The position numbers and the translations under genes are program-made. Shown here one piece after another: positions 1 through 13,707 of a DNA stretch of 64,000 nucleotides. Every line of letters starts with the position of its first letter. The first letter of the stretch is position 1. Source of the DNA: an uncultured Bacteriovoracaceae bacterium (GTDB lineage Bacteria > Desulfobacterota > Desulfomonilia > UBA1062); the NCBI GenBank assembly GCA_964513375.1, contig CAZEMO010000003.1:92730-156729 (forward strand), read 5' to 3'. Under the pieces are notes generated by a model. It saw only the letters and a program-made list of their open reading frames with translations, did not search any database and was not told the origin of the DNA.

Positions 1-1301
1 GGTGTTCGTATGCATCGGGCCCGGATGGCGGGTTGACGGAGATAGATCACGATAAAATTCATGACTCTGTATCTGCCATGGCCTCGAAAGGTCTTAGAAT
101 ACTTGCGTTCGCGTCAAAAAAAGAGTGTAAAGATTTTGCGAACCTGGGCCATGACGAAGTAAAATCAGGAATGACCTTTATAGGCCTCCAGGGTATGATA
201 GACCCGCCCAGAGCTGAATCGGCCGAGGCAGTCAGAAACTGCCACAACGCTGGAATTCAGGTTAAAATGATAACAGGCGACCATGCCCTTACCGCATCCG
301 CTATTGCTCAGAAAATTGGACTTGCAAATCCCGAAAACGTTCTTACAGGCAAGGATATTTCAAAGCTCGACGACGGGGAGCTTCCAGAAATCACCAGGAA
401 GGTGTCTGTCTTTGCTAGAATAGCCCCGGAACAAAAGCTTAAGCTTGTCAGCGCCATCCAGGCAAACGGCAATATTGTCGCTATGACAGGAGACGGCGTA
501 AATGACGCACCCGCCCTTAAAAGGGCAGATATCGGCGTTGCAATGGGAATCACAGGAACGGACGTGGCAAAAGAGTCGGCCGATATGGTTCTGACCGATG
601 ATAATTTCGCAACGATTGAGGCGGCAGTGGAGGAAGGCCGCGGCACATTCGACAATATAACCAAGTTCATAGTCTGGACGCTGCCAACGAACCTGGGTGA
701 AGGGCTAGTCATTCTTGCTGCAATATTTGCCGGAGTGGTGCTTCCGATACTCCCGGTCCAGATACTCTGGATTAATATGACTACCGCAGTGCTTCTCGGT
801 CTAATGCTTGTGTTCGAGCCCAAGGAAGAAGGGATTATGATACGAAAACCTCGCGACCCTGGAAAACCCATATTGACCAGAATGCTCATCAGAAGGATTG
901 TCACGGTTGGGTTCATGCTGCTCGCGGTTGCGTTCGGTTTGTTCGAGTGGGAGCTCAAGTCGGGTTCGGACATAAGCACGGCTAGAACGGTAGCAGTAAA
1001 TGTTTTCGTCATGGTTGAACTTTTTTATCTTTTCAGCTGCCGTTCGCTTAGCAAGCCTGCTTTCTCAACAGGATTTTTCTCGAATAGCTGGCTCTTTGCA
1101 GGAGTGTTTTTAATGCTCGCGCTACAGCTTCTTTTCACATATCTCCCGTTTATGAACCGGGCATTTCAAAGCAGCCCTGTCAGCCTTGTTTCATGGCTGA
1201 GAATTATCGCCGCATCAATTATAATACTTTTAGTTGTGGAGCTTGAAAAAAAATTATTAAACCCTATGAATAAGAAATCGAAATCTCTTGAGGAGAATTA
1301 A
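1..1301 (+). CDS. Cation-transporting P-type ATPase (P2/Ca2+-type), C-terminal part. The 5' end lies outside the window.
   Basis: The ORF frame is open back to the window start. Conserved hinge motif 'MTGDGVNDAPALKRADIGVAMG-ITGTDVAKESADMVLTDDNF' is present, followed by the C-terminal transmembrane helices typical of P2-type ATPases. Confidence 0.9.
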   Translation, partial: CSYASGPDGGLTEIDHDKIHDSVSAMASKGLRILAFASKKECKDFANLGHDEVKSGMTFIGLQGMIDPPRAESAEAVRNCHNAGIQVKMITGDHALTASAIAQKIGLANPENVLTGKDISKLDDGELPEITRKVSVFARIAPEQKLKLVSAIQANGNIVAMTGDGVNDAPALKRADIGVAMGITGTDVAKESADMVLTDDNFATIEAAVEEGRGTFDNITKFIVWTLPTNLGEGLVILAAIFAGVVLPILPVQILWINMTTAVLLGLMLVFEPKEEGIMIRKPRDPGKPILTRMLIRRIVTVGFMLLAVAFGLFEWELKSGSDISTARTVAVNVFVMVELFYLFSCRSLSKPAFSTGFFSNSWLFAGVFLMLALQLLFTYLPFMNRAFQSSPVSLVSWLRIIAASIIILLVVELEKKLLNPMNKKSKSLEEN

Positions 1302-1302
1302 C

Positions 1303-1500
1303 ATGCTTACAAAAAGTGGACGGAAACTTGAAGAAATCATAAAAAAAGCTATCGATGATCACGTGATAAAAAACTCTGAATATGAGGAAATTATTGAGCT
1401 TGTTCATGCAGACGGCGTTTTCGATGCGCATGAGAAGGTGCTGATGAAGGAGCTCAATGACCTTATAGCAGATAAGACAGTCAAACGGATTAACGGATGA
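1303..1500 (+). CDS. Small hypothetical protein (about 66 aa) with an acidic helical pair, weakly TerB/DjlA-N-like
   Basis: The start was chosen at the second ATG, which is preceded by GGAGAA. It overlaps the end of the ATPase gene by 14 nt. No strong family signature. Confidence 0.4.
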   Translation: MLTKSGRKLEEIIKKAIDDHVIKNSEYEEIIELVHADGVFDAHEKVLMKELNDLIADKTVKRING

Positions 1501-1565
1501 AGAGCCAAGGGTGACGGTCAGAATCCATCAATCGATTGAAATAGCTGGCACTTGTGCCTTGCCTG

Positions 1566-3212
1566 TCAAATGCTTGCTGCGCTGTATGTCCTGTATCCCC
1601 CGTTTAAATTGTAGACTTTTTGGTATCCCTTCTGCATGAGAATCCTGCATGCTACATAAGCCCTCAGGCCGATCCCGCAGTATATAATTATCCTTTTATC
1701 CTTCGGTAATTCGTCAAGACGCCCCCTTAACTCATCCAGAGGTATGTTCACCGCATCATCAAGAAAATCCGCTGCAAACTCTATTGGCGTTCTGACATCA
1801 AGCAGTATTACGTCATCTGCGCCTTCAGGAATTTCGTTCCAATGAATGATTTTCACCTTGCCGCTCAGAATATTCTCGGCAACCATTCCCGCAACATTCA
1901 CCGGATCTTTCGCGGATGAAAACGGAGGGGCATACGCATGTTCGATAACCGAGAGATCATATATTGTCCCCTTATTCTTTATTGCGGACGCAATTAGGTC
2001 TATCCTCTTGTCCACTCCTTCTTCACCTGTGACCTGTGCGCCGTATATTGTACCGCCATCAGGTGAAAACAGCAGTTTGATAGAAAGCATGAAGGCCCCG
2101 GGATAGTAACCGGCATGAGAAAAACCATGCGTTATTGAAGAAATGTATTCGATGTTAGAAGCCTTGAGCAGGCGCTCCGTCACACCTGCGCATGCGCAGT
2201 TCAGGCCGAAAACCTTGACTATGGCGGTTCCGATCGATCCATCATATCTGCTGATATCTCCAAGCGCAATATTATCCGCAACTATCCTTGCCTCTTTGTT
2301 TGCCGGCCCTGCCAGAGGAATGGCTATGGGTTTGCCCAGAATCGGATGGATCATCTCGACCGCGTCTCCGAGCGCATATATGTGAGCGTCGGATGTGCGC
2401 ATGTATTCATCCACAATTATTCCTCCGCCAGGACCCATCTCGAGACCAGCCTCTTTTGCAAGGGAAGAGTCCGGCCTTACTCCTATTGAAAGGATTATCA
2501 TGTCCGCCTTCAGGTTCCTCCCGCCTTTGAGTTGCACTGACAGGCCGTTTTCATCTCGTCTCACAGAAACGACAGTTTCGCTCAATATGAGATTTACACC
2601 CTTCTGAATCATGTGCACTTTAGCGAGAGATGCCATGTCATAATCAAACGGGGGCAATACATGATCGAGCATCTCGACCACGCTTACTTTGATTCCAAGC
2701 TGCATAAGATTTTCCGCCGCTTCTAGACCTATGAAACCCGCGCCTATGACAACGGCATTCTTCGGCTTTCTTTCTTCTATGAATGCCTTTATCCTATCGG
2801 TGTCTCCGACTGAGCGGATCGTAAAAACCGCATCGTCGTCGAAGCCGCTGATGTCAGGGCGGAAAGGATATGCACCGGGTGACAGCACTATTTTGTCGTA
2901 TCTTTCAGTATATTCTCTCCCGGTTTTAAGATATCTAGCATAAACGGTTTTGGAGGTCCTATCGATAAAGGTCACCTCATTCTTTACGCGTACATCCAGG
3001 TTATATCTTGCCCTTAGCCCTTCGGCGCTTTGAACGAAAAGGCTCTCTCTGGCCGGTATCACGCCGCCTACATAATACGGCAGTCCGCAGTTCGCATAGG
3101 AGACATAATCATCCCTCTCAAAGATAATAATTTCTGCATTTTCGTCGAGCCGCCTGAGTCTGGCAGCAGTTGAGGCCCCTCCGGCCACTCCTCCTATGAT
3201 GAGATACCTCAT
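1566..3212 (-). CDS. CoA-disulfide reductase / NADH oxidase family flavoprotein with a C-terminal rhodanese domain (CoADR-RHD)
   Basis: N-terminal 'IIGGVAGGASTAARLRR' FAD fold and the redox Cys in 'SYANCGLPYYVGG'. The C-terminal rhodanese segment is 'DVRTPIEFAADF...IIIYCGIGLRAYVACRIL' with the active-site Cys loop. Confidence 0.9.
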   Translation of the reverse strand: MRYLIIGGVAGGASTAARLRRLDENAEIIIFERDDYVSYANCGLPYYVGGVIPARESLFVQSAEGLRARYNLDVRVKNEVTFIDRTSKTVYARYLKTGREYTERYDKIVLSPGAYPFRPDISGFDDDAVFTIRSVGDTDRIKAFIEERKPKNAVVIGAGFIGLEAAENLMQLGIKVSVVEMLDHVLPPFDYDMASLAKVHMIQKGVNLILSETVVSVRRDENGLSVQLKGGRNLKADMIILSIGVRPDSSLAKEAGLEMGPGGGIIVDEYMRTSDAHIYALGDAVEMIHPILGKPIAIPLAGPANKEARIVADNIALGDISRYDGSIGTAIVKVFGLNCACAGVTERLLKASNIEYISSITHGFSHAGYYPGAFMLSIKLLFSPDGGTIYGAQVTGEEGVDKRIDLIASAIKNKGTIYDLSVIEHAYAPPFSSAKDPVNVAGMVAENILSGKVKIIHWNEIPEGADDVILLDVRTPIEFAADFLDDAVNIPLDELRGRLDELPKDKRIIIYCGIGLRAYVACRILMQKGYQKVYNLNGGYRTYSAASI

Positions 3213-3235
3213 GGTACACCGCTCCTTCTATCATC

Positions 3236-3817
3236 CTATTTTGCAGTCCCGCCTCCGCAGCATCCGACAGGCTTACCTCCGCCGCATGATACCTGAGATT
3301 TTGGATTATTTGAAGAGCCCGATGCAATGATTCTGAGCGCCATGGCTGCAGCCCTGCCTACGACATTCGAACAGTGGCCCGACATATCCTGTTTCATCGC
3401 CATGTTGGCGTCATCAGGAATTCTCAGGTTGAAGCTCCTGCCCATCAGCTTTTTTTGAATATCCGCACAGCGGCATGTCCCGTATTCAGATATGAAGTGT
3501 TCGTGAAGCTCTTTCGCAAGGTCGTAAGACTTGATTGCAGCCAGCGGGTCCTTGAATTCCAAGTATCCCCGGCCGAAGATAAGCCCTATTACCATGGCCC
3601 CTCCGGCAAGCGCGCCGCAGCTCCCGTCGCTGCTTAGTCCTATGCCGTCCGCCAGGCCGCTGGCCGCCTTGAATAGATCTTCGCTGTCAATATCAAGGAC
3701 CTCAAGAAGGGCTGCAACCGTGCTCTGGGCGCATCCTGTACAGGTTATCTCATATTCCTTTGCAATATCTCTGATCTTTTCAATATCCGCTTCTTTTATC
3801 AATTTAAGGTTTTTCAT
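3236..3817 (-). CDS. C_GCAxxG_C_C family putative redox-active protein with a Cys/Gly-rich C-terminal tail
   Basis: Motifs 'TCTGCAQSTVAALLEVL', 'SCGALAGGAMVIGLIFG', 'GTCRCADI' and 'GHCSNVVGRAAAMALRII' match the family layout. The tail is 'CGGGKPVGCCGGG'. Confidence 0.8.
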   Translation of the reverse strand: MKNLKLIKEADIEKIRDIAKEYEITCTGCAQSTVAALLEVLDIDSEDLFKAASGLADGIGLSSDGSCGALAGGAMVIGLIFGRGYLEFKDPLAAIKSYDLAKELHEHFISEYGTCRCADIQKKLMGRSFNLRIPDDANMAMKQDMSGHCSNVVGRAAAMALRIIASGSSNNPKSQVSCGGGKPVGCCGGGTAK

Positions 3818-3832
3818 GGATATTCCTCCGCA

Positions 3833-5131
3833 TCAGGCAAAATGCCACGGCTCTTTCGGTGAAAATAATATTTTATCACCCGAGACCCGTTTACGATAGC
3901 CGTTCTCGTCCAGAATCCTGGTTACAAGCACATTAGGTCTTGACGGGAAAGGAAGGCTCTTCTTGAACTTTGCCTCCGCCGTATCGAGTTTAAAGAGTTC
4001 CTCGACGATCTGTTTTACTGTAGCTTCTCCGAGCCTTGCATGAGTTTCGAGCACATCCCTCCTCAATCCCGAATAGTATTTCTCGAACGTTGAGAAGAAT
4101 GTTATGCACTCATCCTCTCCTCTGGCGCAATCCTCCAGCTGAACGGGATTGAACACCTCAATATTCAGCATGCTCAATGCATCCTTGAAAAAGGCTTTGC
4201 TCCTGTGCGCATCTGAAGCGAGCGAAACAAAACCCTGTTCTGCCATGCGCCTTAATCCTCTCACTGCGGTTATGCATTTTTCAAATGAGCTGTCGAAGAA
4301 TGGTGGATTTATCTCGACCGTGACGTCCCCGCTCAATAAAAGGCGGTTCTGCGGATCATAAAGGCATATGTGCCCGGGACTGTGAGATCCGTCATGAATG
4401 ACAAAGAAGCGACCGACCTGCCAACCCATGAATTCGGTATCGCCGAATGACCTTCTCTCGCGGCTCGAAAGCGGTAAAATTTCAGCCCTTTCGGCAAGGT
4501 TTCTCTTGTTTCCAATCAAGACGCGGTCTATGAGCAGTTTCAGGGCCATCCTGTAATCCTCGTAGCTTGAATCTGGCCTAAGCTCCGACAGGTATTTCCA
4601 TACCAGCGCATATTGGGGCTCTTCATATTCTTTGAAATTTCTGGCGTATATTTCTATCTCCTGAAGAATATCCTTCCAGGACTCGTACGGATTGAAGAAT
4701 GCCTCGAGTTTTCTGAAGTCGCCGAGCCAGTGATATGCGCTATCTATTACCGGGACCTCCGGTTCGGGCAGGAGGAACCGCACGGTCTTGAAACCGGCAT
4801 CAAGTACCAGATCGTTGTTCAGCGCATGGTCCCAGTGCCCCTGAGTGTCCATGAGTACAAGATTACCGCAGCCTGCGGCCGAATATTTTCTGAGCACTTC
4901 GAGTATCCTCTGCCTGTAGAAAGGCTGCATGCCAGAGTCCAGCATGAATACTGTGTCCCTATCTCTCAATATGTAGACATTGCTGGACGGCGGTGCGAGA
5001 AAAAAAGAAAAGCCTGCAAAACCTTCGATCTGCCAGATATCCGGGGCGATCTCCTTGACGGCTGATCTGGCAAACGCCTCTTCCATATCAGGGAAACAAA
5101 AAGGATGAAGCTTCGGACAACTTTCTTTCAT
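3833..5131 (-). CDS. Metallo-beta-lactamase-fold hydrolase (432 aa) with an uncharacterised C-terminal extension of about 140 aa
   Basis: Core motifs are 'FMLDSGM', 'DTQGHWDH' (an HxHxDH-like motif) and 'HDGSHSPGH'. GGAGG lies 6 nt before the ATG. Confidence 0.75.
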   Translation of the reverse strand: MKESCPKLHPFCFPDMEEAFARSAVKEIAPDIWQIEGFAGFSFFLAPPSSNVYILRDRDTVFMLDSGMQPFYRQRILEVLRKYSAAGCGNLVLMDTQGHWDHALNNDLVLDAGFKTVRFLLPEPEVPVIDSAYHWLGDFRKLEAFFNPYESWKDILQEIEIYARNFKEYEEPQYALVWKYLSELRPDSSYEDYRMALKLLIDRVLIGNKRNLAERAEILPLSSRERRSFGDTEFMGWQVGRFFVIHDGSHSPGHICLYDPQNRLLLSGDVTVEINPPFFDSSFEKCITAVRGLRRMAEQGFVSLASDAHRSKAFFKDALSMLNIEVFNPVQLEDCARGEDECITFFSTFEKYYSGLRRDVLETHARLGEATVKQIVEELFKLDTAEAKFKKSLPFPSRPNVLVTRILDENGYRKRVSGDKILFSPKEPWHFA

Positions 5132-5167
5132 GGTATACCTCCATTATTCGTATTTGCCCATATATGG

Positions 5168-5184
5168 AGCAAGTCTCATGCCAG
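5168..5184 (-). promoter_or_regulatory. Sigma-54 (-24/-12) promoter reading toward the MBL-fold / C_GCAxxG / CoADR-RHD operon
   Basis: The minus strand reads TGGCAT-GAGAC-TTGCT. GG and GC are spaced exactly as in the TGGCACG-N4-TTGC consensus. The predicted transcription start is about 25 nt upstream of the ATG at 5131. An enhancer-binding regulator gene lies divergently, adjacent. Confidence 0.5.
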
Positions 5185-5275
5185 CAGTGATATCTTTTTA
5201 TCTTATTGTTTTTATATAATTATATTACATTTATTTTTTATATTTATTTTTTATTGACGTTATTGGGTCATTATA

Positions 5276-8200
5276 ATGTCCATATATTGCCATTTAACAT
5301 TGCAGTACGTTGTAAATGATGATATCCGTTATCGCGGTATGGGAAAAGAGAACATAAAAAAAGACGGGTATAAACTGTCGCCTGAGCAATTAAAGATGCT
5401 CGCTTTCCTGAATGCGGTTCGAACACAGGTACATATAGATACTGTCGCTGCAATAGTTCAAATACGACCTGCCTCTCTGATTGCACTGATCAATGATGGA
5501 ATACATTCAGGATATCTTGAAGAGACACAGAAGGACGTATACTCTCTTACGGCTGATCTCCCTTCATGGATAGAGTCCGGCATCAGGATAGTCGCTGACA
5601 ACAACTTCTTCCATTCTCTTCTCGGATCGATAGAAAGCATTCAGGCTGCAGACCTGCTTCCAACAAGGTCAATGGCGGCGATTCTTGAGGGTGCGGGCAG
5701 AATGTATGAGGCGGCGTTTGCATACCATGACTCCGCATCGAAATACCTCTTGGAAGACAGCGTGGAAAATAGTCTTGAATGCGAACTGGCTGCCATAGAA
5801 ATACTCAAAAAGGAGAAGTCCTCGAAACACAGAAATTCGCTTTTCGTATCTGCAGTGATGGGACTTTCGGGTCTCTACATACGCCTCTCTCAGGCCCATC
5901 CGGAAATCATCACTCTTCTCAGGGTCGCCAGAAAGATAGCCCTCGGCATGGGCGACAGGAGGTCTTCGGTAATAATAGACCTGCATCTGGGGCGCTACTA
6001 CTTCATGAGCAACAAGCTCTCTGAAACCCTTGATGCCCTGCATAAGGCCGTCGAAGAGCTCGACGGGTTCATGGATGACGATATGAGGGATCAGGCAGGG
6101 CAGTTCGTAGGTCTTTATTATTATCTTCAGGGCAAGTATGAAGATGCGGCCGAGCATCTTGGCAAGGCAATCCATACATCTTCCAATTCACTTTACGGGG
6201 CACCAGATAATATACTGCTTCTGTTCTATGCATTCAGCTGCGCCTGCACCGGGCAGTTTCACAAGGCTATAGGCATCCTAGATGCGGGATGGCGCCGGAC
6301 TTTCAACGCTTCCAAATTCGAACAGACTTTCCATGCAAGGGCGCTCCTCGGATATATTCTTCTGTTGTGCGGAAAGAAGGATGAAGCCCTCGAACATCTC
6401 AAGGCGTCCAGATTTTATGAATGGAAAAACCCGAATGCATTCGGCAGGTGGATCACTGAGGCAGGCTTTGCCATGGAGGCATTCAGGTCAGGGCGCATAA
6501 AGGAAGCGCATGACATACTCATAAATCTTCTTTCAGAAGATATCCACATAAGACAATATCCGGTGCCCGCATTCTTCGAGATGCTTGCCGAATTTGACAG
6601 AAGGAAATATCCGGCAATAATGAACATCTCCTATGAACAGGAGAGACTCCGAATCCTGAAGGGCCCCAATGTTCATCTGAAAGGGGCGGCCTTCAGGATT
6701 ATGGCTCAGAATGTTTCATCGGCTTCTCCTGCAAGTCCTCTGATTGCGAGATATCTCTCGGAAAGCGAGAGGAATCTCGTCTCATCCGGAGATCCGGTGG
6801 AACTGGCCAAGACATACGCCGAGTTTGCAAGATACTATATCCGCAGAAAAAAGAAGGAAAAGGCATCGGAATATGCGATAAAGGCATGGGAGAGCTTTTC
6901 AGGCCTCGGGGACATATACCTTACCGATGATATAAAAAACCTGCTTACCGGCGAAATAAAATCCAGGCCTACGACCGTCGCTCGCGATGACATAACGGCG
7001 AGACTTGTAAAAATGATTGGCGACATCATACCCTCATATGATTCCGACAGCCTTTTCGACAAAGTGCTCGAGGCTATAACCGGATTTCTAAAAGCCGAGC
7101 GCTCTGCTCTGTTTCTCTTCACCAGAGAACAGGGAAAAGCACCGACATTGAAGGCTTCTCAATCCATATCTAAAGACGAGGTCAATGCACCCCCGTTCCA
7201 CAGCGCACTTTCACTGATATTCTCAGCAAGAAAAGTCAAGATGCCCGTATATAAAACACTGACTGACTATAACGGCATTGAGCGCACTGTATTATGCATA
7301 CCGGTAAATGCAGGGCCGGATTTCGATGGCGTCATGTATTTTGAATCCCTTTTCATCGCAGACGCAATGACAGACACGTCAGGTACTGTACCCGGCCTGC
7401 TCATGGATATAGCGGGCGATGCCTTTGCAAAGATAATGAGGCTTGAAACTGCAAGGAACATAACAAAATCATTACCATGTGAAGACATACATCCCTCAGA
7501 CAACAAAGATGATGAAATCATCGCAAAAAGCAGCGTAATGACCGGAATGCTCTCAGAGTTGGACAAGGCAGCCGCAACTGACGCCTCGATTCTTGTAACC
7601 GGAGAAACAGGCACAGGAAAAGAACTTATCGCCAGGCGCATACATAATAGGAGCATGCGTGCGGGAGGCCCCTTTATTACAGTCAACATCGCCGGCATAC
7701 CGGAAACACTCATAGAAAGTGAGCTGTTCGGGAATGAAAAGGGTGCTTTCACAGGGGCAGATTCACGTCACATAGGAAGAATAGAACTGGCCCACACAGG
7801 GACGCTTTTCATAGACGAGCTCGGTGAGATCCCTCTTTCAGTACAGATCAAACTCCTTCGAGTTCTCCAGGATGGGACCTTCAACCGCCTGGGTGGTGGA
7901 AGAAGCATAAAGTCCGATTTCAGACTTGTCACCGCTACAAACAAAGACCTTGAGGCCGAGGTCGAGAAAGGGGGTTTCCGCAGAGACCTGTTCTACAGGA
8001 TCAACACCTTTCATATCCGCGTACCGCCGCTTCGAGAGCGGAAAATCGATATCGTACTTATTTCTGAAGCTTTCATCAGGCACTTCACAAAAGAATTCAA
8101 CAAACCTTACGTCGAGCTTTCGCGGGAACAGCAAGAGGCTCTATTGAATTATCCATGGCCCGGCAATGTCAGAGAATTGAGAAACGTGATCGAACGCAGC

Positions 8201-8434
8201 ATCCTGCTGTCGGACAAAAATTCCATCGAACTCGCCCTTCCGGTATTGCATAATCAGGAACATAAGGACATCTTCTCCGGCACCCCTACCCTCGATGAAC
8301 TTCAAAGACGCTACATAAAACAAGTGATTGAGATGGCAGGGGGAAGAATCTCCGGGAAGAACGGCGCTTCCGCAATCCTTGGAATCAAAAGAACGACATT
8401 GAACGCAAGGATGAAGAAACTGGGCATCCGTTGA
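5276..8434 (+). CDS. Sigma-54-dependent transcriptional activator (enhancer-binding protein, EBP) with a large N-terminal TPR-like region, a GAF domain, an AAA+ sigma-54 interaction domain and a Fis-type HTH
   Basis: AAA+ motifs 'GETGTGKELIARRIH', 'ESELFGNEKGAFTGA' (GAFTGA) and 'ELGEIPLSVQIKLLRVLQDG'. C-terminal HTH 'GKNGASAILGIKRTTLNARMKKLGI'. The real start may be the ATG at 5339, because a TATAAT box overlaps the ATG at 5276. Confidence 0.9.
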   Translation: MSIYCHLTLQYVVNDDIRYRGMGKENIKKDGYKLSPEQLKMLAFLNAVRTQVHIDTVAAIVQIRPASLIALINDGIHSGYLEETQKDVYSLTADLPSWIESGIRIVADNNFFHSLLGSIESIQAADLLPTRSMAAILEGAGRMYEAAFAYHDSASKYLLEDSVENSLECELAAIEILKKEKSSKHRNSLFVSAVMGLSGLYIRLSQAHPEIITLLRVARKIALGMGDRRSSVIIDLHLGRYYFMSNKLSETLDALHKAVEELDGFMDDDMRDQAGQFVGLYYYLQGKYEDAAEHLGKAIHTSSNSLYGAPDNILLLFYAFSCACTGQFHKAIGILDAGWRRTFNASKFEQTFHARALLGYILLLCGKKDEALEHLKASRFYEWKNPNAFGRWITEAGFAMEAFRSGRIKEAHDILINLLSEDIHIRQYPVPAFFEMLAEFDRRKYPAIMNISYEQERLRILKGPNVHLKGAAFRIMAQNVSSASPASPLIARYLSESERNLVSSGDPVELAKTYAEFARYYIRRKKKEKASEYAIKAWESFSGLGDIYLTDDIKNLLTGEIKSRPTTVARDDITARLVKMIGDIIPSYDSDSLFDKVLEAITGFLKAERSALFLFTREQGKAPTLKASQSISKDEVNAPPFHSALSLIFSARKVKMPVYKTLTDYNGIERTVLCIPVNAGPDFDGVMYFESLFIADAMTDTSGTVPGLLMDIAGDAFAKIMRLETARNITKSLPCEDIHPSDNKDDEIIAKSSVMTGMLSELDKAAATDASILVTGETGTGKELIARRIHNRSMRAGGPFITVNIAGIPETLIESELFGNEKGAFTGADSRHIGRIELAHTGTLFIDELGEIPLSVQIKLLRVLQDGTFNRLGGGRSIKSDFRLVTATNKDLEAEVEKGGFRRDLFYRINTFHIRVPPLRERKIDIVLISEAFIRHFTKEFNKPYVELSREQQEALLNYPWPGNVRELRNVIERSILLSDKNSIELALPVLHNQEHKDIFSGTPTLDELQRRYIKQVIEMAGGRISGKNGASAILGIKRTTLNARMKKLGIR

Positions 8435-8468: not shown

Positions 8469-9095
8469 TTACTCCAGAAGACTCTGCACACATTGGACTG
8501 CGGTAAAAGCATCCGGCGCATAACCGCTGGCACCGATTTTATCTGCAAATTCCTGAGTCACCGGAGTACCGCCCACGATAATTCGTGCTGCCGGATCAAT
8601 TGCCCTTATGGCATCTATCGTCTTCTTCATATTGAGCATGGTTGAGCTCAAAAGTGCTGACAGCCCAAGTATATCCGGTTTCATGTTTTTATAGGCCTCA
8701 ACGAATCTCTCTGTTTTAATGCCTTCTCCCAGATCAACAACCTCATAGCCTGCCCCTTCAATGCACATCCGGACAAGGTTCTTGCCGATGGAATGAATAT
8801 CTCCCTCCACCGTTCCCAGCACCACCTTACCCCGATCTTTAATCTCACCCTTAAAACGTGCTTTCAGACAAACCAACCCCTCTTCCATTGCATGAGCCGC
8901 AACAATCAACTCAGGAATAAAGGCCTCTCCCTGGGCGAAACGCTCACCTATCTCCTCCATGGCCGGCATCATTGCCTGTTCCAGAATTTCCCGCGGTGTC
9001 ATCCCATTATTAATTGCCTCTTCCAAAAGAGAAGTTATTCTTTCATCATCCCCTGACTGAACAGCATTTTTGATATCTTCCAGCGTTTTTATCAT
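8469..9095 (-). CDS. Cobalamin-binding corrinoid protein (MtaC/MtbC-like)
   Basis: N-terminal B12-binding-2 helical cap and the Rossmann B12 domain with the DxHxxG motif 'EGDIHSIGKN'. Confidence 0.85.
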   Translation of the reverse strand: MIKTLEDIKNAVQSGDDERITSLLEEAINNGMTPREILEQAMMPAMEEIGERFAQGEAFIPELIVAAHAMEEGLVCLKARFKGEIKDRGKVVLGTVEGDIHSIGKNLVRMCIEGAGYEVVDLGEGIKTERFVEAYKNMKPDILGLSALLSSTMLNMKKTIDAIRAIDPAARIIVGGTPVTQEFADKIGASGYAPDAFTAVQCVQSLLE

Positions 9096-9115
9096 TGCCT
9101 TTCTCCTTTAATGTT

Positions 9116-10213
9116 TCAAACCTTAATGGGATATGTCCCGTATTTATGCGCCGCCCTCACCATAGCCAGATAATTTTCCGGTTTGCATCCCGGATGTATG
9201 GAGTTGGATGAGCTAATGATGTAGCCTCCGCCGGGTGCAGCTTTGGCTATTGTTTCCTTGACGGTCTGCTCCACTTCTTCCTCTGTTCCGAATGGCAGGA
9301 GATATGTGCAATCGATATTCCCCAGAAGACAAAGGCGGTCTTTATATCCGGCCTTAACCTCTCCTATGTCCATGCACTGGGGCTGATTGGGGTGGAAACC
9401 GTCAAAACCAGCCTCTGCTATATCGTCAAGAATGGGCCCCATATTCCCGTCCGAATGCTTGATGATTTTTAGCCCCCGTTCATGGGCGCGAGCCACTATC
9501 TCCTTATGGAACGGAAAGATGAATTGCCTGTATTGAGCGGGAGACATAAGCGTGGTCTGGTTGAATGCAAGATCGCCATCCAGTGCGAAAACGTTCGCCC
9601 CGAGCGCCGCGGCTTTATCGACCACCTCAAGTATGTAGTCAGTTACGATTCGTCCGAGATCCAGAACGAAAGAAGGCTTTTTTATGTAGTAGAACAAAAG
9701 CTTTTCCATACTGCCCAGAAGCGACCAGCTTTCCCTGAAAGGTCCAGGCTGTACAAACACCTGTGCAGTATCGCCGCCCATGCCGCCGGTTGACGCCATA
9801 AGCATGAGAAAATCCATGTCCTGGGGATGATATATCTTGAGATTTTTGAGGTCATCAGGTCCGGATATTGGCCCCCCCACGGAGGTCGCCTCACCTTCTC
9901 CGGCTACATACAGAACACGGCCCCAGCCATCCCTGTAGTGCGTCTCGTCTATTTTCTCCGTAACAGGCAGCGTGATCGAAGTAAGACCATCCAGCTCCAG
10001 AGCCTTGGCAAACGTAAACAGTGTATTGAGAAGCTTGATTTTTTCCTCCATGGTCATCTGGCTTGCGAATTTCATAGGCGGCAGGTCATCAGTGAAGAAT
10101 CTCCCGATCTTGATAATCGATTCTTCATTAAAAGCCATCTCCCAAACCGGAACCCGGTCAGGTTCTCTGCGGTCCAAAGCCGTCAGCATTCTTTCTTTTC
10201 CTGTCATATACAT
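9116..10213 (-). CDS. Uroporphyrinogen decarboxylase (URO-D) family methyltransferase (MtaA/CmuA-like, corrinoid-dependent)
   Basis: 'MLTALDRREPDRVPVWEMAFNEE' and overall URO-D-like TIM-barrel signature. The start was set at an ATG preceded by GAGGG. Confidence 0.8.
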   Translation of the reverse strand: MYMTGKERMLTALDRREPDRVPVWEMAFNEESIIKIGRFFTDDLPPMKFASQMTMEEKIKLLNTLFTFAKALELDGLTSITLPVTEKIDETHYRDGWGRVLYVAGEGEATSVGGPISGPDDLKNLKIYHPQDMDFLMLMASTGGMGGDTAQVFVQPGPFRESWSLLGSMEKLLFYYIKKPSFVLDLGRIVTDYILEVVDKAAALGANVFALDGDLAFNQTTLMSPAQYRQFIFPFHKEIVARAHERGLKIIKHSDGNMGPILDDIAEAGFDGFHPNQPQCMDIGEVKAGYKDRLCLLGNIDCTYLLPFGTEEEVEQTVKETIAKAAPGGGYIISSSNSIHPGCKPENYLAMVRAAHKYGTYPIKV

Positions 10214-10328
10214 ACCCTCTCTTGCTAATTGGATTTTGTATAACAATTTTAAATCCCTGCATTACTTGATGGCTTTTGTCAAATGTTTCAGCAGTTTTTT
10301 ACTTCTCATCTACTATTTTTTTAAATGA

Positions 10329-10405: not shown

Positions 10406-12250
10406 ATGAAGAAATCTTATTATTTAATACCTTTTATCAGTTTAGCTTTGATTCTGAGCGGATGCATACTTTCCAAGTCGCCTTCCACTGATTCAGTTTC
10501 CATGAATCTCGGCGATCACCAAGTATTCAGCGTGAAAATCTTTCCGTCTAAAGCAGTATATACCTGGACTCTGGATGGAGCGGCTTTGCCTAACACAGGG
10601 AATTCTTTTATTTACACAGCACAAGCCGGGCAACACTTTCTTACTGTCCGGGCAAAGCACAGTTTAGGCACTGATACCCAGTCCTGGGATATCACTACCT
10701 TTAACACTGCGCCGGTTGCCAGTGCGGGCCCTGATCAAACAGTATCAGTTAATACCAATGTAACCTTAAATGGCTCCGGCTCTTTTGACCAGGATAACAA
10801 CATTGTTTCTTATCAGTGGCAGCAGATAGACGGTCCTTCAGTAGAGCTGAACAATGCATATACTGCCATTGCAAATTTTACAGCATCTGTTGCAATAGGG
10901 TCCACTTTGACCTTCAGGCTGATCATTATAGATGCCGATGGACTTCAGTCAACCGATACATGTTCCGTTACAGTTGAGCAGCTAAACCATAATCCAATCG
11001 CCAATGCCGGCCCTGATCAATCAGTTATTGCAAATGCAACTGTAGTTTTGAATGGCTCCGGCTCTTTTGATCCTGATAATAATATTGTTTCTTATCAGTG
11101 GCAGCAGATATACGGACCTTCCGTTACCCTTAACGATGCAGACACTGCCATTGCAAGCTTTACAGCATCTGTCGAATCTGATTCTACACTGTTGTTTATG
11201 CTGACAGTTACAGATGCTGACGGACTACAGTCAACTGATACATGCTCTGTCACAGTTCCGCAGCCAAACCAGAGCCCTGTCGCTAATGCCGGTCCTGATC
11301 AGAGTGTTTCTGTAAATTCGACCGTTACTCTCTATGGCGCAGGTTCAACCGACCCGAATAATGACATTGTTTCTTATCACTGGCAGCAGAAAAGCGGGAC
11401 TTATCCATATGTAACTCTGACTAATGCGGAAACGGCCATTGCACAGTTCACAGCTACGGTTCCAATAGGAAGAGTACTGACATTTGAGCTTACTGTGACT
11501 GATGCGACAGGACTTCAATCGACAGATTCCTGTGATGTGTCAGTCTCTGTGATCAGTTCTCCTATCACCGACTTGCTTAATTCCATGATCTATCTTCCTG
11601 CCGGTACTTTCATGATGGGCAGAGAGGGCGAATATGCAGCCACCCCTGTCCATCAGGTGAACGTGCAGGGATTCGGAATCGGTGCATACGAGGTAACCCA
11701 GGCACAGTATAAGGCGGTAATGGGTGAGAATCCCTCATATTACCAGGGGCCGAGTTACCCTAACAGCGAAAACAGGCCGGTTGAACTGGTAAGCTGGGAT
11801 AATGCACGCGAATTCTGCGCCGCCCTGTCTGCCGTCACGGGACGAAACTTCACATTGCCGAGTGAAGCCCAGTGGGAATATGCCTGCAGGGCCGGGTCTG
11901 ATACCCTTTTCAGCTTCGGAGATGATGATTCACTGCTTGGCAATTATGCCTGGTACATTTTGAATTCAGGCAATCAGACGCATTACGTCGGCACAAAACT
12001 TCCAAACGCGTGGGGGCTCTACGACATGCACGGCAACGTCTCTGAATGGTGTCTGGATTCATGGCATGAAGATTATACCGGGGCTCCGTCTGACGGCAGC
12101 GCCTGGGAGCCTGATGCCGGTATCGATAGGGTTCTTCGTGATAACTCCTTTGCTTTCTCCGCGAGTGATTTGCATTTGGCGCGTCGTACTTACTCACATC
12201 AGTACACCGGTACCAATAGTTGGGGGTTCCGCATAGTCGAAATCCCTTAA
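10406..12250 (+). CDS. Lipoprotein with an N-terminal paralog-shared module, three PKD domains and a C-terminal FGE-sulfatase (DUF323 / SUMF1-like) domain
   Basis: Lipobox 'LILSGC'. Three repeats of 91 aa carry 'AGPDQxV...LNGSGSFDxDNNIVSYQWQQ'. The C-terminal domain carries 'LPAGTFMMG', 'RPVELVSWDNAREFC', 'LPSEAQWEYACRAG' and 'WGLYDMHGNVSEWC'. The FGE catalytic Cys pair is absent. Confidence 0.85.
   Translation: MKKSYYLIPFISLALILSGCILSKSPSTDSVSMNLGDHQVFSVKIFPSKAVYTWTLDGAALPNTGNSFIYTAQAGQHFLTVRAKHSLGTDTQSWDITTFNTAPVASAGPDQTVSVNTNVTLNGSGSFDQDNNIVSYQWQQIDGPSVELNNAYTAIANFTASVAIGSTLTFRLIIIDADGLQSTDTCSVTVEQLNHNPIANAGPDQSVIANATVVLNGSGSFDPDNNIVSYQWQQIYGPSVTLNDADTAIASFTASVESDSTLLFMLTVTDADGLQSTDTCSVTVPQPNQSPVANAGPDQSVSVNSTVTLYGAGSTDPNNDIVSYHWQQKSGTYPYVTLTNAETAIAQFTATVPIGRVLTFELTVTDATGLQSTDSCDVSVSVISSPITDLLNSMIYLPAGTFMMGREGEYAATPVHQVNVQGFGIGAYEVTQAQYKAVMGENPSYYQGPSYPNSENRPVELVSWDNAREFCAALSAVTGRNFTLPSEAQWEYACRAGSDTLFSFGDDDSLLGNYAWYILNSGNQTHYVGTKLPNAWGLYDMHGNVSEWCLDSWHEDYTGAPSDGSAWEPDAGIDRVLRDNSFAFSASDLHLARRTYSHQYTGTNSWGFRIVEIP
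10709..11557 (+). repeat. Three tandem in-frame repeats of about 273 nt (the PKD domains) inside the lipoprotein gene
   Basis: Near-identical stretches such as 'ggctccggctcttttga...attgtttcttatcagtggcagcagata' recur at 273-nt spacing. Confidence 0.8.
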
Positions 12251-12271
12251 GCAGCTAGTTTAAAAACTAAG

Positions 12272-12312
12272 AGGACGGCACTGAAAAGAACTTCTTTGCC
12301 GTCCTTTTTTAT
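12272..12312 (+). terminator. Rho-independent terminator
   Basis: AGGACGGCA...TGCCGTCCT stem followed by a TTTTTT run, 22 nt after the stop codon. Confidence 0.6.
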
Positions 12313-12355
12313 TGTGCGATAAGAATATGCATTAGATAATCCATCACAGGAGGCA

Positions 12356-12871
12356 ATGATGAAAAAATTATTCTTGCTGATTTCTGTGCTTGTATTTTCG
12401 GGATGTGTGAAGATTCCTCAGGGGATAGAACCTGTAAAAGGTTTTGAAGCTGACCGATATCTCGGCAAATGGTATGAAATTGCAAGGCTCGACCACAGTT
12501 TCGAGCGTGGCCTCACAAGGGTGACGGCAGAATATTCCTTGAACAGTGATGGCAGCATACGTGTGATAAACCGCGGCTATGATGAAAAGTCCGGAAAATG
12601 GAAAGAAGCCGTCGGCAAAGCCTTCTTTGTCAAAGACAATAAAACAGGGTTCTTAAAGGTTTCCTTCTTCGGGCCCTTTTACGGTTCTTATGTGATATTC
12701 GGTCTCGACAAGGATCATTATCAGTATTCTTTTGTCAGCGGGCCTGACAGGGATTACCTCTGGCTGCTTTCCCGGACGCCTGGTATCAGCAATGAAACAA
12801 AAGAGCGGTTCATCAATGAGGCATCCCGGATTGGTTTTGATACCCGAAAACTCATATATGTCGAGCAGTAG
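12356..12871 (+). CDS. blc: Bacterial lipocalin Blc (outer-membrane lipoprotein)
   Basis: Lipobox 'VFSGC' and the lipocalin signature 'GKWYEIARLDHSFERG'. Length 171 aa. Confidence 0.9.
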   Translation: MMKKLFLLISVLVFSGCVKIPQGIEPVKGFEADRYLGKWYEIARLDHSFERGLTRVTAEYSLNSDGSIRVINRGYDEKSGKWKEAVGKAFFVKDNKTGFLKVSFFGPFYGSYVIFGLDKDHYQYSFVSGPDRDYLWLLSRTPGISNETKERFINEASRIGFDTRKLIYVEQ

Positions 12872-12945
12872 ATAACCGAATCTGGACGTATATTCTTAAC
12901 TGTCAATTGTTGACAAATTGTGGAGCATGGCAGGGGAGACCCTTT

Positions 12946-13707
12946 TCAGTTCAAAATCAGATTTGTAAAACGCAGATAAGGCCTGAGGGCCGGTGTTCCT
13001 CCGCCTTCGGAAACGATCTGCAAAACCCGCAAAGGATCGGCAACTACCGCACCTCCCAGATGCGTGATCGGTGTGTTTTGGAAAGACTCCGGAACAAGCG
13101 GTGTTGATGGACCCATAAGTGCAACCAAACGTGGTTTTTCCAGTAAATTTGCCGTCTCTTCAAATGTGCCGTTGAGAAGCGTCGTGGCAGTAATGATTGC
13201 TACGTCACACTCTTTAAGCGCCTGAATTCTATTCTCCTCAGTAACCGATTCCATACGCTCGGGATTCTTCTCGATGATTGTAAGAGATGCGCCCGTGTTG
13301 CGGATACCTGGGATAAGTGGCGCGAAAAGCCCTACCATCGCTACTTTTTCACCTGGTTTCAAATTGAAATAGGTTGTCGCCTCGCGATCTTCGGCATCGT
13401 CATTGTGTGGCACTGAAAGTGCGTTAACAGCAGCGAGACCAATGGCTCGATGCAGAACACTCCTGCCTTCAATCAGGTAGTTAAGAGCGAGTGATGCTGA
13501 AGAGCCCGCATATGTTCCGGCTTCTTTTAGAACAGTGCAACTGCCAGGCGTTTTGTCTGGCAATAAGGCGGCGATCCCTGCTTTCCCGTCATCCATTTTC
13601 AGGGCTATATAAGTCAAGCCCACCCTCAAATCGGCAATCAGATGATTTTTAGCTGAAGACTCAAATCTATCATAAAGTCTTTTCAACATAGTTCCTGGTT
13701 CAAGCAT
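12946..13707 (-). CDS. DUF4213/DUF364 family protein (Rossmann-like putative chelatase-type domain)
   Basis: Recognised from overall architecture ('GLTYIALKMDDGKAGIAAL', 'VAMVGLFAPL', 'CDVAIITATTLLNGT'). This is from memory of the family, not from a search. Confidence 0.55.
   Translation of the reverse strand: MLEPGTMLKRLYDRFESSAKNHLIADLRVGLTYIALKMDDGKAGIAALLPDKTPGSCTVLKEAGTYAGSSASLALNYLIEGRSVLHRAIGLAAVNALSVPHNDDAEDREATTYFNLKPGEKVAMVGLFAPLIPGIRNTGASLTIIEKNPERMESVTEENRIQALKECDVAIITATTLLNGTFEETANLLEKPRLVALMGPSTPLVPESFQNTPITHLGGAVVADPLRVLQIVSEGGGTPALRPYLRFTNLILN

Follow-up and report, generated by a model that had tools for sequence, protein, structure and literature searches.

The locus considered here raises the question of what is achieved by an operon that brings together an MBL-fold metallo-enzyme, a C_GCAxxG_C_C protein and a CoA-disulfide-reductase-like flavoprotein-rhodanese fusion (CoADR-RHD), and how such an operon is switched on. 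It lies in a stretch of 64,000 nucleotides, which was analysed as a whole and is called the window below. A sequence-only reading of this DNA had proposed a sigma-54-driven module for handling sulfane sulfur or reactive thiols. In the present study we describe the operon, its regulatory region and its products, and compare gene neighbourhoods across 45 related loci, the close relatives all being metagenome-assembled genomes.

Operon organization and promoter

The three genes lie on the minus strand. Gene 1 (3833-5131, ATG at 5131-5129) encodes the MBL-fold metallo-enzyme of 432 aa and gene 2 (3236-3817) the C_GCAxxG_C_C protein of 193 aa, both identified from the open reading frame and Pfam; gene 3 (1566-3212), identified from Pfam and PDB matches, encodes the 548-aa fusion, of Npsr/CoAPR type. 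All of the Pfam families named in advance by the sequence-only reading (Lactamase_B, C_GCAxxG_C_C, and Pyr_redox_2 plus Rhodanese) were recovered. No terminator-like site was found between the three genes. The proposal of a tightly packed operon is borne out by intergenic gaps of 15 and 23 nt, by a GGAGG/GAAGGAG of its own ahead of each downstream gene, and by the identical three-gene order in loci L001, L004, L009 and L054.

A sigma-54 (-24/-12) promoter, TGGCAT-GAGAC-TTGCT (TGGCATGAGACTTGCT), was located at 5168-5183 on the minus strand by consensus match and position weight matrix (PWM), with TGGCAT at 5183-5178, the spacer GAGAC, and TTGCT at 5172-5168. The same TGGCAT-N5-TTGCT had been placed at 5168-5184, and only its boundary needs correction, 5184 being the preceding C. 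The distance from promoter to the ATG of gene 1 is 38 nt; transcription is expected to start at ~5157-5158, which is ~11-12 nt past the -12 GC and leaves a leader of ~26 nt. A GGAGG ribosome-binding site (5138-5142, minus strand), read from the sequence, stands 6 nt before this ATG and is retained in orthologous loci.

The exact consensus TGGCAY-N5-TTGCW has one match in the 64 kb against 0.22 expected, and 19 of 100 shuffles contained at least one. A PWM trained solely on nine orthologous promoters, with ~128,000 window positions scored, ranked the 5168-5183 site first at 17.9 bits (runner-up 13.2). The PWM search suggested earlier thus favours the site by rank, but its score is attained by 13% of random 64-kb sequences. 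Sequence score by itself leaves chance possible, and it is the context that raises the promoter above it. The site lies in a ~200-bp intergenic region adjoining the window's only GAFTGA activator gene, and the -24/-12 element (GG-N10-GC) and its spacing are retained, in the same place, in all nine of the orthologous loci that have a linked activator. No such sigma-54 promoter was found in L002, the sole checked locus that has the operon and lacks the activator. With exact consensus, top PWM rank and a geometry kept in nine loci, the promoter first proposed by eye holds. rpoN was not found within the 64-kb window, and its presence elsewhere in the genome is therefore an assumption.

A divergent activator and two upstream palindromes

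The gene on the far side of the intergenic region (5339-8434, plus strand) encodes a divergent sigma-54 activator of ~1031 aa, recognized from Pfam, its GAFTGA motif and orthologue alignment. It had been overlooked by the sequence-only reading. The protein matches Sigma54_activat (220 bits), AAA_lid_14 and HTH_8, and consists of a ~700-aa TPR-like and GAF-like sensor region, an AAA+ domain carrying the GAFTGA, and HTH_8; GAF and TPR_MalT matches were found on its orthologues. Its start is likely the ATG at 5339, not the ORF-finder start at 5276, because orthologues align only from residues 27-35 on and because one of the palindromes described below (site A) overlaps the ATG at 5276. The orthologous activator of L001 starts at the equivalent of ORF residue 22, behind a ribosome-binding site.

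Both copies of a 16-bp palindrome of the TGACC-N6-GGTCA type (consensus TGACCATATAAGGTCA) lie between the divergent genes. These putative upstream activator sites, site A (TGTCCATATATTGCCA, 5277-5292) and site B (TGACGTTATTGGGTCA, 5255-5270), were identified by PWM and conserved position, and are 22 bp apart from centre to centre, with 80 bp between site B and the GG of the -24 element. When the window was scored with a PWM derived from 16 sites of other genomes, site B ranked first (18.5 bits) and site A second (16.7 bits); the next unrelated match scored 9.4 bits, and the null maximum was 13.1 +/- 1.9. Across nine activator-linked loci the spacings are 21-22 bp from A to B, 80-82 bp from B to the GG, and 36-41 nt from the -12 element to the start codon. 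The nine loci that share this geometry are diverged. An AT-rich spacer (5184-5254; 63 of 71 bases A or T, and 71-73 bp long in the nine loci) separates the activator sites from the promoter, and is presumed to be a bendable loop region where bending or IHF binding may occur. The operon is very probably an activator-dependent sigma-54 operon, with the divergent gene product as cognate activator and the two palindromes as its upstream sites.

The three gene products

Gene 3 is the best understood of the three. Besides Pyr_redox_2, Pyr_redox_dim and Rhodanese, it has full-length matches to 3ICR (8e-170), 3NTA (8e-156) and 8A56 (2e-150), matches Archaeoglobus fulgidus Npsr (6PFZ) at 8e-114, and retains both catalytic cysteines, in ANCGLPYY and YCGIGLR. 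Characterised members of the CoADR-rhodanese family reduce persulfides and CoA-persulfide (PMC9405070, PMC7969121). The full-length matches and the two cysteines uphold the earlier assignment to this persulfide-reducing family, and from that membership the protein is probably a persulfide-type reductase.

The gene 2 product matches C_GCAxxG_C_C at 86 bits (cut-off 27) and has the Cys/Gly tail described earlier (SCGGGKPVGCCGGGTAK), a disordered segment of residues 168-193. [quoted passage not shown] On the fold, a single remote structural match, there is an even chance that the protein is an iron-centre protein or redox carrier. Its likely iron-centre nature had gone unmentioned in the sequence-only reading. 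The 'novel iron centre' of 1H21 was reportedly described by Abreu et al. in 2003 as a Cys-ligated [2Fe-2S] cluster.

Gene 1 belongs to a very small, separate and rare MBL family. It matches Lactamase_B at 41.5 bits (cut-off 22.7) and carries the motifs QxHxDH (residues 97-102), H254, D269 and H309; in the family the metal ligands are invariant, the first His being replaced by Gln in most members. The MBL core extends to ~residue 320 and includes a ~90-aa helical insertion at ~123-205, because of which the Lactamase_B match is limited to residues 229-281. The insertion had escaped earlier notice. A helical and beta-hairpin domain follows at ~329-425. The 432-aa MBL-fold enzyme first described stands, with an unexplained C-terminal part of ~100-110 aa, not ~140 aa. 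The family is unlike persulfide dioxygenases. In sequence, the PDB entries closest to gene 1 are TTHA1623 (2ZWR) and YcbL (2XF4), matched through an H-x-PGH-x-x-YDP-x-GD block. The resemblance to glyoxalase-II-like proteins is confined to a stretch of ~30 residues (E 7e-7 to 4e-5), one such match being annotated as a hydroxyacylglutathione thioester hydrolase, and the fold is equally near many kinds of hydrolase, among them dehalogenase, alkylsulfatase, LACTB2 and PqsE, at 12-18% identity; the substrate class is for these reasons a guess. A thioester-type hydrolase is a tentative and rather doubtful reading, and the weakest step of the explanation given below.

Conservation in related loci

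The constant unit across the 45 loci is a regulator, either a sigma-54 activator or TetR, with the MBL gene, often accompanied by the C_GCAxxG_C_C gene. The latter two stand side by side in 13 loci or more, under one or the other regulator, and are fused once (P0020); two-gene and single-gene forms that have a regulator of their own are also frequent. CoADR-RHD, present in 7-8 of the 45 loci, is accessory and may be only loosely tied to the MBL/C_GCAxxG_C_C pair, since most related loci lack it. Loci without it carry genes for acyl-CoA metabolism, SCP2 and flavoprotein reductases, and no other sulfur-oxidation or sulfur-transfer genes were found among their annotated neighbours. In the larger operons of L002, L003, L016 and L053 the pair, with or without CoADR-RHD, shares one strand with CoA ligase, acyl-CoA dehydrogenase, thiolase, SCP2 and nitroreductase-type genes. 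Neighbours of this CoA-related kind are frequent in these genomes, and their presence may be a coincidence.

The proposal of a module for sulfane sulfur or reactive thiols consequently survives for the family of gene 3 and is unlikely for the operon as a whole, given that CoADR-RHD is scarce and that the loci lacking it have acyl-CoA genes, not sulfur genes, as neighbours. Of the three genes, gene 3 alone fits a 'sulfur stress' role, the conserved core being a rare metal-dependent hydrolase and a small cysteine-rich protein.

Proposed function and alternatives

From the sequence anatomy and its conservation we infer activator binding, looping and a signal. Our best explanation, held with slightly better than even confidence, is an inducible CoA/thiol-chemistry module under activator-dependent sigma-54 control. 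The activator (~1030 aa) would bind the two palindromes, which lie ~80 and 102 bp ahead of the -24 element, and, once its TPR/GAF-like N-terminal region has sensed a small molecule, loop across the AT-rich spacer and spend ATP opening the promoter at 5168-5183. All three genes would be transcribed as a single mRNA, and their products would form a cytoplasmic module around CoA/thiol chemistry. Here the metal-dependent hydrolase of gene 1 might act on a hydrophobic or CoA-linked compound, cleaving its thioester or a comparable adduct, with the gene 2 protein as the enzyme's obligate partner, whose five invariant cysteines would bind an iron centre or serve as redox thiols. Gene 3 would supply an NAD(P)H-dependent persulfide, polysulfide or CoA-persulfide reductase that clears sulfane sulfur from the CoA/thiol pool.

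A dedicated detoxification operon for sulfane sulfur (persulfide, polysulfide or S8), as proposed earlier, is unlikely. It would entail FisR-like sensing, an MBL enzyme acting on persulfides or polysulfanes, a C_GCAxxG_C_C tail carrying sulfur, and sulfide production by CoADR-RHD. Such an operon would suit the close full-length homology of CoADR-RHD to persulfide/CoA-persulfide reductases (PMC7969121, PMC9405070) and the existence of a sulfide-responsive sigma-54 activator, FisR (PMC7315123); SCP2 partners could bind hydrophobic S8 or polysulfanes, and one cysteine of the sensor region is invariant in an alignment of ten full-length activator sequences. However, the architecture of that sensor region bears no relation to FisR, CoADR-RHD is an accessory, and loci without it have no rhodanese, SQR, PDO, TusA or DsrE among their annotated neighbours. 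Cys/Gly tails occur on 6 of the 7 C_GCAxxG_C_C proteins whose genes accompany CoADR-RHD and on none of the first four examined without it, but the link, predicted beforehand, failed at L067, where a Cys-bearing tail occurs with no CoADR-RHD within 7 kb.

It is improbable that the operon encodes a NorR/NorVW-like reductive detoxification chain, switched by the GAF-bearing sigma-54 activator and running from NAD(P)H through gene 3 and gene 2 to gene 1 as a di-iron MBL reductase of O2, NO or another oxidant. The gene layout fits, many family members have weak Pfam matches to ODP (oxygen-binding di-iron), and in L016 and L053 the MBL gene has MCP genes beside it, an arrangement also seen for ODP. 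Nearly every extended locus also has an NAD(P)H flavoprotein or Fe-S reductase, including a Fer4-GltD-nitroreductase fusion, Flavodoxin_2 and an FAD/NAD/Fer2 fusion. Yet the metal motif Q/H-x-H-x-D-H is of hydrolase type, not the H-x-E-x-D-H of flavodiiron proteins; the ODP score of gene 1 (23.8) falls below the cut-off of 27.2 and covers ~40 residues only; the flavodoxin domain is absent; and gene 3 keeps its CoA-cysteine and rhodanese cysteine and is not of NorW or rubredoxin-reductase type.

Quite improbable, too, is the view that the three genes are what is left of a larger operon for the breakdown of a hydrophobic carboxylic acid, possibly one containing sulfur, by CoA activation, dehydrogenation and thiolysis, and that they have no stand-alone stress role. 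The larger operons embed the pair among CoA/beta-oxidation-type genes, and catabolic genes are usually controlled by TetR or a ligand-type sigma-54 activator. Against this, the three-gene form with its own activator is unchanged in the four loci that share its gene order, no substrate can be named, and the two-gene and single-gene forms are common, so the core functions without beta-oxidation genes. Finally, a fortuitous -24/-12 match, with an ordinary sigma-70 promoter reading the operon, is extremely improbable: on score alone 13-19% of random 64-kb sequences do equally well, but element, palindromes and spacing are conserved in nine loci adjoining a sigma-54 activator, and no sigma-70-like site in the operon direction was found between the activator gene and gene 1.

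Comparison with known systems

The inducible CoA/thiol-chemistry module that we favour resembles two known arrangements in part. In E. coli norR-norVW, a sigma-54 activator with a GAF-type sensor is likewise divergent from genes for an MBL-fold metalloprotein and a Pyr_redox_2 flavoprotein; the operon described here differs in lacking a flavodoxin or rubredoxin domain, in its hydrolase-type metal motif, and in having a CoADR-rhodanese fusion as flavoprotein. In Cupriavidus and Acinetobacter, the sigma-54 activator FisR is divergent from pdo-sqr, sulfide-oxidation operons, and a divergent activator next to an MBL-fold enzyme and sulfur-handling functions is common to both systems (PMC7315123). 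The ~700-aa TPR-like and GAF-like sensor sets the present activator apart from FisR, its MBL enzyme is not a persulfide dioxygenase, and SQR is missing from the operon.

Gene 1 shares the MBL fold and metal ligands with YcbL of Salmonella (2XF4) and TTHA1623 of Thermus (2ZWR). Its best fold matches are MBL hydrolases of ~290-350 residues (TTHA1429 2ZO4, LACTB2 4AD9, 8D2Z, 5U8O), with 250-290 aligned residues compared to ~205-210 for plain beta-lactamases. Identity to glyoxalase-II-like proteins and MBL hydrolases is 12-19%, and the ~90-aa helical insertion and the Gln in place of the first His belong to the gene 1 family. The gene 2 product, unlike split-Soret cytochrome c (1H21), has neither a haem domain nor CXXCH motifs, and is predicted to be a stand-alone cytoplasmic protein of 193 aa with a Cys/Gly tail.

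Gene 3 shares architecture and catalytic cysteines with Shewanella loihica Npsr (3NTA), Bacillus anthracis CoADR-RHD (3ICR) and Enterococcus faecalis CoAPR (8A56). Like A. fulgidus Npsr, for which a protective role was suggested, it occurs in a sulfate-reducer-type lineage (PMC7969121). E. faecalis responds to sulfide stress with higher levels of CoAPR and of two uncharacterised thioesterases (PMC9405070). Gene 3 does not belong to a CstR-repressed cst-like operon with rhodaneses (PMC9405070), and is instead the last gene of a sigma-54 operon, after the MBL and C_GCAxxG_C_C genes.

Promoter, operators and activator

The three genes lie in tandem on the minus strand and encode a 432-aa MBL-fold metallo-enzyme (gene 1, 3833-5131), a 193-aa C_GCAxxG_C_C protein (gene 2, 3236-3817), and a 548-aa CoADR-rhodanese fusion (CoADR-RHD; gene 3, 1566-3212). 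The intergenic gaps are 15 and 23 nt, and genes 2 and 3 each have their own Shine-Dalgarno sequence. Pfam assigned Lactamase_B, C_GCAxxG_C_C, and Pyr_redox_2 with Pyr_redox_dim and Rhodanese to the three products, and the description of these genes in the sequence-only reading was therefore accurate. The predicted sigma-54 promoter, TGGCAT-GAGAC-TTGCT, occupies 5168-5183 of the minus strand (TGGCAT 5183-5178, TTGCT 5172-5168), and is followed by a ribosome-binding site, GGAGG (5142-5138), and the gene 1 ATG at 5131 on the same strand; the minus-strand sequence of the region reads ...CTGGCATGAGACTTGCTCCATATATGGGCAAATACGAATAATGGAGGTATACCATG. The outer end originally given for the promoter, 5184, is merely the C preceding TGG, while the 5168 end stands. 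Scanning of 1200-5600 revealed neither a terminator inside the operon nor a convincing sigma-70 promoter for it. A weak hairpin after the operon stop codon, GGCAC-AA-GTGCC (1547-1558), was not counted as a part, and no RpoN-box protein was found within the 64-kb window.

The GG and GC dinucleotides of the promoter are spaced exactly 10 nt apart, and the site is an exact match to TGGCAY-N5-TTGCW. This pattern occurs once in the window against 0.22 expected, and 19 of 100 shuffled sequences also yield a match. With a PWM built from nine orthologous sites, the window site came top at 17.9 bits (next 13.2), a score that 13% of random 64-kb sequences also reach. The score alone thus exceeds chance only weakly, and becomes significant once position is counted. 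The second-best sigma-54-like site, CTGGCACGCTTCTTCCTA at 29177-29194 on the plus strand (13.2 bits), has TTCC in place of TTGC.

Comparative evidence is what decides the promoter question. Searching 185,579 species genomes with an MBL protein alignment gave 36 true loci, and more were added by contig look-ups. GG-N10-GC is kept in every locus in which a long activator gene is divergent from an orthologous MBL gene (9/9, among them L001, L003, L004, L005, L006, L009, L054, and L055), with the orthologous form (T/C/A)GG(C/T)A(C/T)-N5-(T/C/A)TGC. The element is absent from L002, the activator-less locus checked, where the genes lie inside a longer operon. The activator-linked loci also contain two 16-bp palindromes, candidate upstream activator sites (UAS), with the consensus TGACCATATAAGGTCA. 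A UAS PWM made from 16 sites, none of them from the window, placed its top two window matches at 5255-5270 (site B, 18.5 bits) and 5277-5292 (site A, 16.7 bits); the next match reached 9.4 bits, and the null maximum was 13.1 +/- 1.9.

The geometry of these elements is near invariant over the nine loci, although the proteins share only 54-79% identity. The two palindromes are 21-22 bp apart centre to centre, the proximal one lies 80-82 bp from the GG of the -24 element (80 and 102 bp for the two window palindromes, in the range of ∼80-150 bp expected of upstream activator sites), the spacer measures 71-73 bp (A or T at 63 of 71 bases in the window), and the -12 element is 36-41 nt from the start codon. 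This is the anatomy of a textbook activator-dependent sigma-54 promoter, and the matter is settled as far as sequence analysis allows. The promoter and three-gene operon first proposed are upheld by the exact consensus, the short gaps and this conserved geometry. A further palindrome, TGCCCATATATGG(A) = TGCCCATATATGGA, is found directly downstream of the -12 element (5155-5168), with the CCATATATGG core as in site A. It is outside the 12 best UAS PWM matches, the lowest of which scores 7.9 bits, no counterpart was seen in the orthologues, and it may be an additional operator or have arisen by chance.

The sequence-only reading overlooked the divergent activator gene that adjoins the promoter. 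The ORF called by the ORF finder spans 5276-8434 on the plus strand and starts inside site A. Its product has Sigma54_activat (220 bits), AAA_lid_14, and a Fis-type HTH_8 domain (23.5 bits, cut-off 22) in Pfam, and GAFTGA begins near 7742, the sole such motif in the 64-kb window. With an AAA+ GAFTGA domain and a C-terminal HTH, the protein belongs with the bacterial enhancer-binding proteins of the NtrC/NifA class. It reached none of the NCBIfam equivalog cut-offs and so falls in no named subfamily. The ∼700 residues before the AAA+ domain gave weak TPR matches alone in the window protein, and TPR_MalT and GAF matches on orthologues. One cysteine of the sensor region, residue 674 of the 1052-aa ORF, is invariant. 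A homologue search with this sensor region listed 8 proteins, and among the matches listed there was no clue to a ligand. Orthologous activators align from ORF residues 27-35 onward, and the L001 ORF begins at the equivalent of residue 22 behind a ribosome-binding site, so that the real start is probably the ATG at 5339; neither window ATG (5276, 5339) is preceded by a convincing ribosome-binding site. In L001, a Desulfomonilia MAG with the closest orthologue in the genome collection, two ORFs of 639 and 384 aa (4659-7755) stand in place of a single activator gene, owing to a frameshift, pseudogene formation or an assembly error, and the promoter and palindromes there are intact.

The CoADR-rhodanese fusion

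Gene 3 carries Pyr_redox_2 (2-285), Pyr_redox_dim (330-433), and Rhodanese (465-545) domains in one chain (Pfam). It aligns end to end with the CoADR-RHD of B. anthracis (3ICR, E 8e-170), the persulfide reductase Npsr of Shewanella (3NTA, E 8e-156), the CoA-persulfide reductase (CoAPR) of E. faecalis (8A56, E 2e-150), and Npsr of A. fulgidus (E 8e-114). The redox cysteine is kept (YANCGLPYY opposite FANCGLPYY of 3ICR), as is that of the rhodanese loop (YCGIGLRAY opposite TCQLGMRGY). A classical CoA-disulfide reductase was considered and rejected, the scores being below the NCBIfam equivalog cut-offs TIGR03385 (463 vs 579), NF007123 (385 vs 458), and NF010037 (342 vs 394). CoADR-RHD fusions act on persulfides and polysulfide, not on CoA disulfide (PMC7969121, PMC9405070), and the sub-cut-off scores agree with this published activity. 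Gene 3 is a predicted persulfide-type reductase.

Gene neighbourhoods

A census of neighbours covered 45 loci. The long sigma-54 activator is present in 11, all of Thermodesulfobacteriota type, and a TetR gene is near the MBL gene in 14, including Actinomycetota and Bacillota (directly adjacent in 12). CoADR(-RHD) was found in 8 loci, one of them a Bacteroidota-labelled MAG (L031), CoA ligase in 7, acyl-CoA dehydrogenase in 6, and SCP2 as a separate gene in 4 (L002, L003, L016, and L053). The C_GCAxxG_C_C protein of L031 has a probable SCP2-like C-terminal extension ending GCCGGS, as read from the sequence. The C_GCAxxG_C_C gene adjoins the MBL gene in at least 13 loci, under a sigma-54 activator or TetR, and the two are fused in protein P0020 of L053. 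In the TetR versions L066 and L067 the order is reversed, with C_GCAxxG_C_C before MBL and overlapping stops and starts. These counts indicate a constant unit of a private regulator and MBL, usually with C_GCAxxG_C_C, to which CoADR-RHD is an add-on.

The themes that recur among the neighbours are CoA thioesters, hydrophobic-ligand carriers, and NAD(P)H-linked reductases. This bears on the role proposed from sequence alone, a pure sulfane-sulfur module: gene 3 is homologous to persulfide reductases and FisR offers a regulatory precedent, but classical sulfur oxidation and sulfur transfer are not among the recurring themes of the extended loci, and the interpretation is partly supported.

Another rival takes the operon for a trimmed remnant of a larger catabolic one. 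Larger gene sets do occur: L002 encodes two acyl-CoA dehydrogenases, a Fer4/GltD-like/nitroreductase fusion, CoA ligase, MBL, SCP2, C_GCAxxG_C_C, and CoADR-RHD; L003 has the activator, then MBL, thiolase, the Fer4/GltD-like/nitroreductase fusion, CoA ligase, SCP2, a methyltransferase, C_GCAxxG_C_C, and CoADR-RHD; the sets of L016 and L053 are similar. The constant unit seen in the census points to a smaller core, and in a sister subgroup (L056, L057) activator and MBL are accompanied by Flavodoxin_2, an MFS transporter, and FAD/NAD/Fer2 reductases.

Genes for methyl-accepting chemotaxis proteins lie beside the MBL clusters of two unrelated loci (L016, 6172-7707; L053, 15593-17149). This proximity recalls the pairing of chemoreceptors with ODP, an oxygen-binding di-iron family, and may be coincidence. 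In the window, two minus-strand genes at 8469-10246 are convergent with the activator gene. One encodes a 208-aa corrinoid protein that binds B12, the other a 376-aa URO-D-like protein with an MtaA-type methyltransferase fold; they resemble a corrinoid methyltransferase pair and seem to have no connection with the operon. Three more genes occupy 10406-13707. One product is of secreted type and combines three PKD-like domains with an FGE-sulfatase (formylglycine-generating enzyme-like) domain; the others are a bacterial lipocalin and a DUF364/DUF4213 'heavy-metal chelation' protein. A P-type cation ATPase gene truncated by the window edge, of which the C-terminal part is present, and after it a 70-aa ORF without a Pfam match occupy 33-1500; both are convergent with gene 3.

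The C_GCAxxG_C_C protein

Gene 2 exceeds the cut-offs of both Pfam PF09719 (86 vs 27) and TIGR01909 (59.3 vs 47.4), and falls below that of the DVU_1555 subfamily (53.7 vs 103). Cys26, Cys29, Cys67, Cys117, and Cys149 are invariant among 31 sequences. The protein has an all-alpha core and, from residue 168, a disordered tail carrying SCGGGKPVGCCGGGTAK. A single-sequence search of the PDB gave no match. With the structural model, Foldseek placed the split-Soret cytochrome c of Desulfovibrio desulfuricans (1H21) first, with probability 0.99 and as the one outstanding relative; the family profile also retrieves 1H21 (E 0.03), with the CGAL..G..GR and HC motifs aligned. The title of this entry mentions "a novel iron centre", which, in 2003 work by Abreu and colleagues, was reportedly a [2Fe-2S] cluster of the non-haem domain, ligated by cysteines. 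From the likeness in fold and this iron centre we infer that gene 2 may encode an iron-centre or redox-thiol protein.

A literature search on C_GCAxxG_C_C returned mentions of expression only and no functional data: induction by acetone in Desulfococcus biacutus (PMC4103992) and by syngas in Clostridium ljungdahlii (PMC5640608). Close homologues elsewhere are mostly stand-alone genes in unrelated contexts, so the family alone offers no hint of a pathway.

The Cys/Gly tail was considered as a marker of partnership with CoADR-RHD. In a first count it was present in 6 of 7 proteins with CoADR-RHD vs 0 of 4 without. The one prospective test went against the link, as the protein of L067 (TetR, C_GCAxxG_C_C, MBL) has a Cys tail without CoADR-RHD, and in L002 CoADR-RHD is present and the tail absent. 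The marker was downgraded to a weak tendency, and after the failed test the tail as a handle is kept solely as a speculative case.

The MBL protein

Gene 1 has the alpha-beta/beta-alpha fold and metal ligands (HxHxDH, H, D, H) of the MBL superfamily, with H99, D101, H102, H254, D269, and H309 invariant; the first metal motif opens with Gln in most members, and with His in a single subgroup. In a confident AF2 model (pLDDT 93), the MBL core extends to ∼residue 320 and is interrupted by a helical insertion of ∼90 residues (123-205), which accounts for the restricted Pfam match (229-281). The C-terminal block (329-425) consists of four helices and a beta-hairpin. Sequence comparison with the PDB gave solely local matches, to the glyoxalase-II-like 2ZWR and 2XF4 around the PGH...YDP...GD block. 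A glyoxalase-II-like hydrolase is a tentative and rather doubtful assignment for gene 1, and the weakest link of the model. The family is small, with 78 proteins in an index of 5.8 billion sequences and, out of 1.84 billion representatives, only 35 clusters at E<=1e-30, many of which are fragments. Its close relatives all come from metagenome-assembled genomes, the nearest named being a Desulfomonilia bacterium.

Two other identities were rejected. Gene 1 lacks the close sequence or fold similarity to persulfide dioxygenases (ETHE1/CstB/Blh type), and their compact domain (∼230-300 aa). As a flavodiiron/ODP protein it falls short, since the ODP score is 23.8 (cut-off 27.2) and covers just residues 250-290, and the flavodoxin domain is absent; a rival explanation for the operon, a NorR/NorVW-like chain passing electrons to a di-iron MBL, sits poorly with this result.

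Discussion

As follows from the anatomy of promoter, operators and activator, the activator would bind both palindromes and loop across the AT-rich spacer, and a signal received via its TPR/GAF-like region would lead it to open the sigma-54 complex. TetR control in other phyla likewise points to a ligand that is small and probably hydrophobic. The three enzymes would form a module centred on CoA or thiols: the gene 1 hydrolase would split a thioester or adduct and so release a thiol, probably CoA, the gene 2 protein would serve as iron-centre or thiol partner, and the persulfide-type reductase of gene 3 would, in this genome, clear sulfane sulfur from the same pool.

A bolder reading, which we consider very improbable, is that the three proteins are a previously undescribed NAD(P)H-driven sulfur-handling relay switched on by a new TPR-GAF class of sigma-54 sensor. 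Speculatively, MBL would break a C-S or an S-S bond of some hydrophobic sulfur compound (such as organic polysulfanes or S8) that SCP2 would present where the operon is larger; the flexible Cys/Gly tail of the iron-centre C_GCAxxG_C_C protein would receive the sulfur or oxidising equivalent, and the rhodanese domain of CoADR-RHD would take it from there for reduction to sulfide. Were this true, the large orphan family PF09719 would gain a first function, and CoADR-RHD enzymes would acquire a protein substrate.

The CoA/thiol-centred module has a partial precedent in E. faecalis, where CoAPR and uncharacterised thioesterases are raised by sulfide stress (PMC9405070). The original observation is confirmed and considerably strengthened, with a clean, comparatively validated sigma-54 unit (activator, two palindromes, fixed looping distance, and promoter) in an uncultured Desulfomonilia-type lineage. 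Repeated adjacency under two types of regulator, together with one natural fusion, links the very rare MBL family with C_GCAxxG_C_C, a widespread orphan family, the iron-centre domain of the split-Soret cytochrome provides a structural lead on the nature of the latter, and an enzyme of persulfide-reductase type is found in a new genetic context. Current knowledge is not overturned, and the value lies in a well-defined entry point to two uncharacterised protein families. The core pair of MBL and C_GCAxxG_C_C belongs to known superfamilies and is uncharacterised in function, and the regulatory unit is of an ordinary kind, a well-defined new example with an uncharacterised type of sensor.
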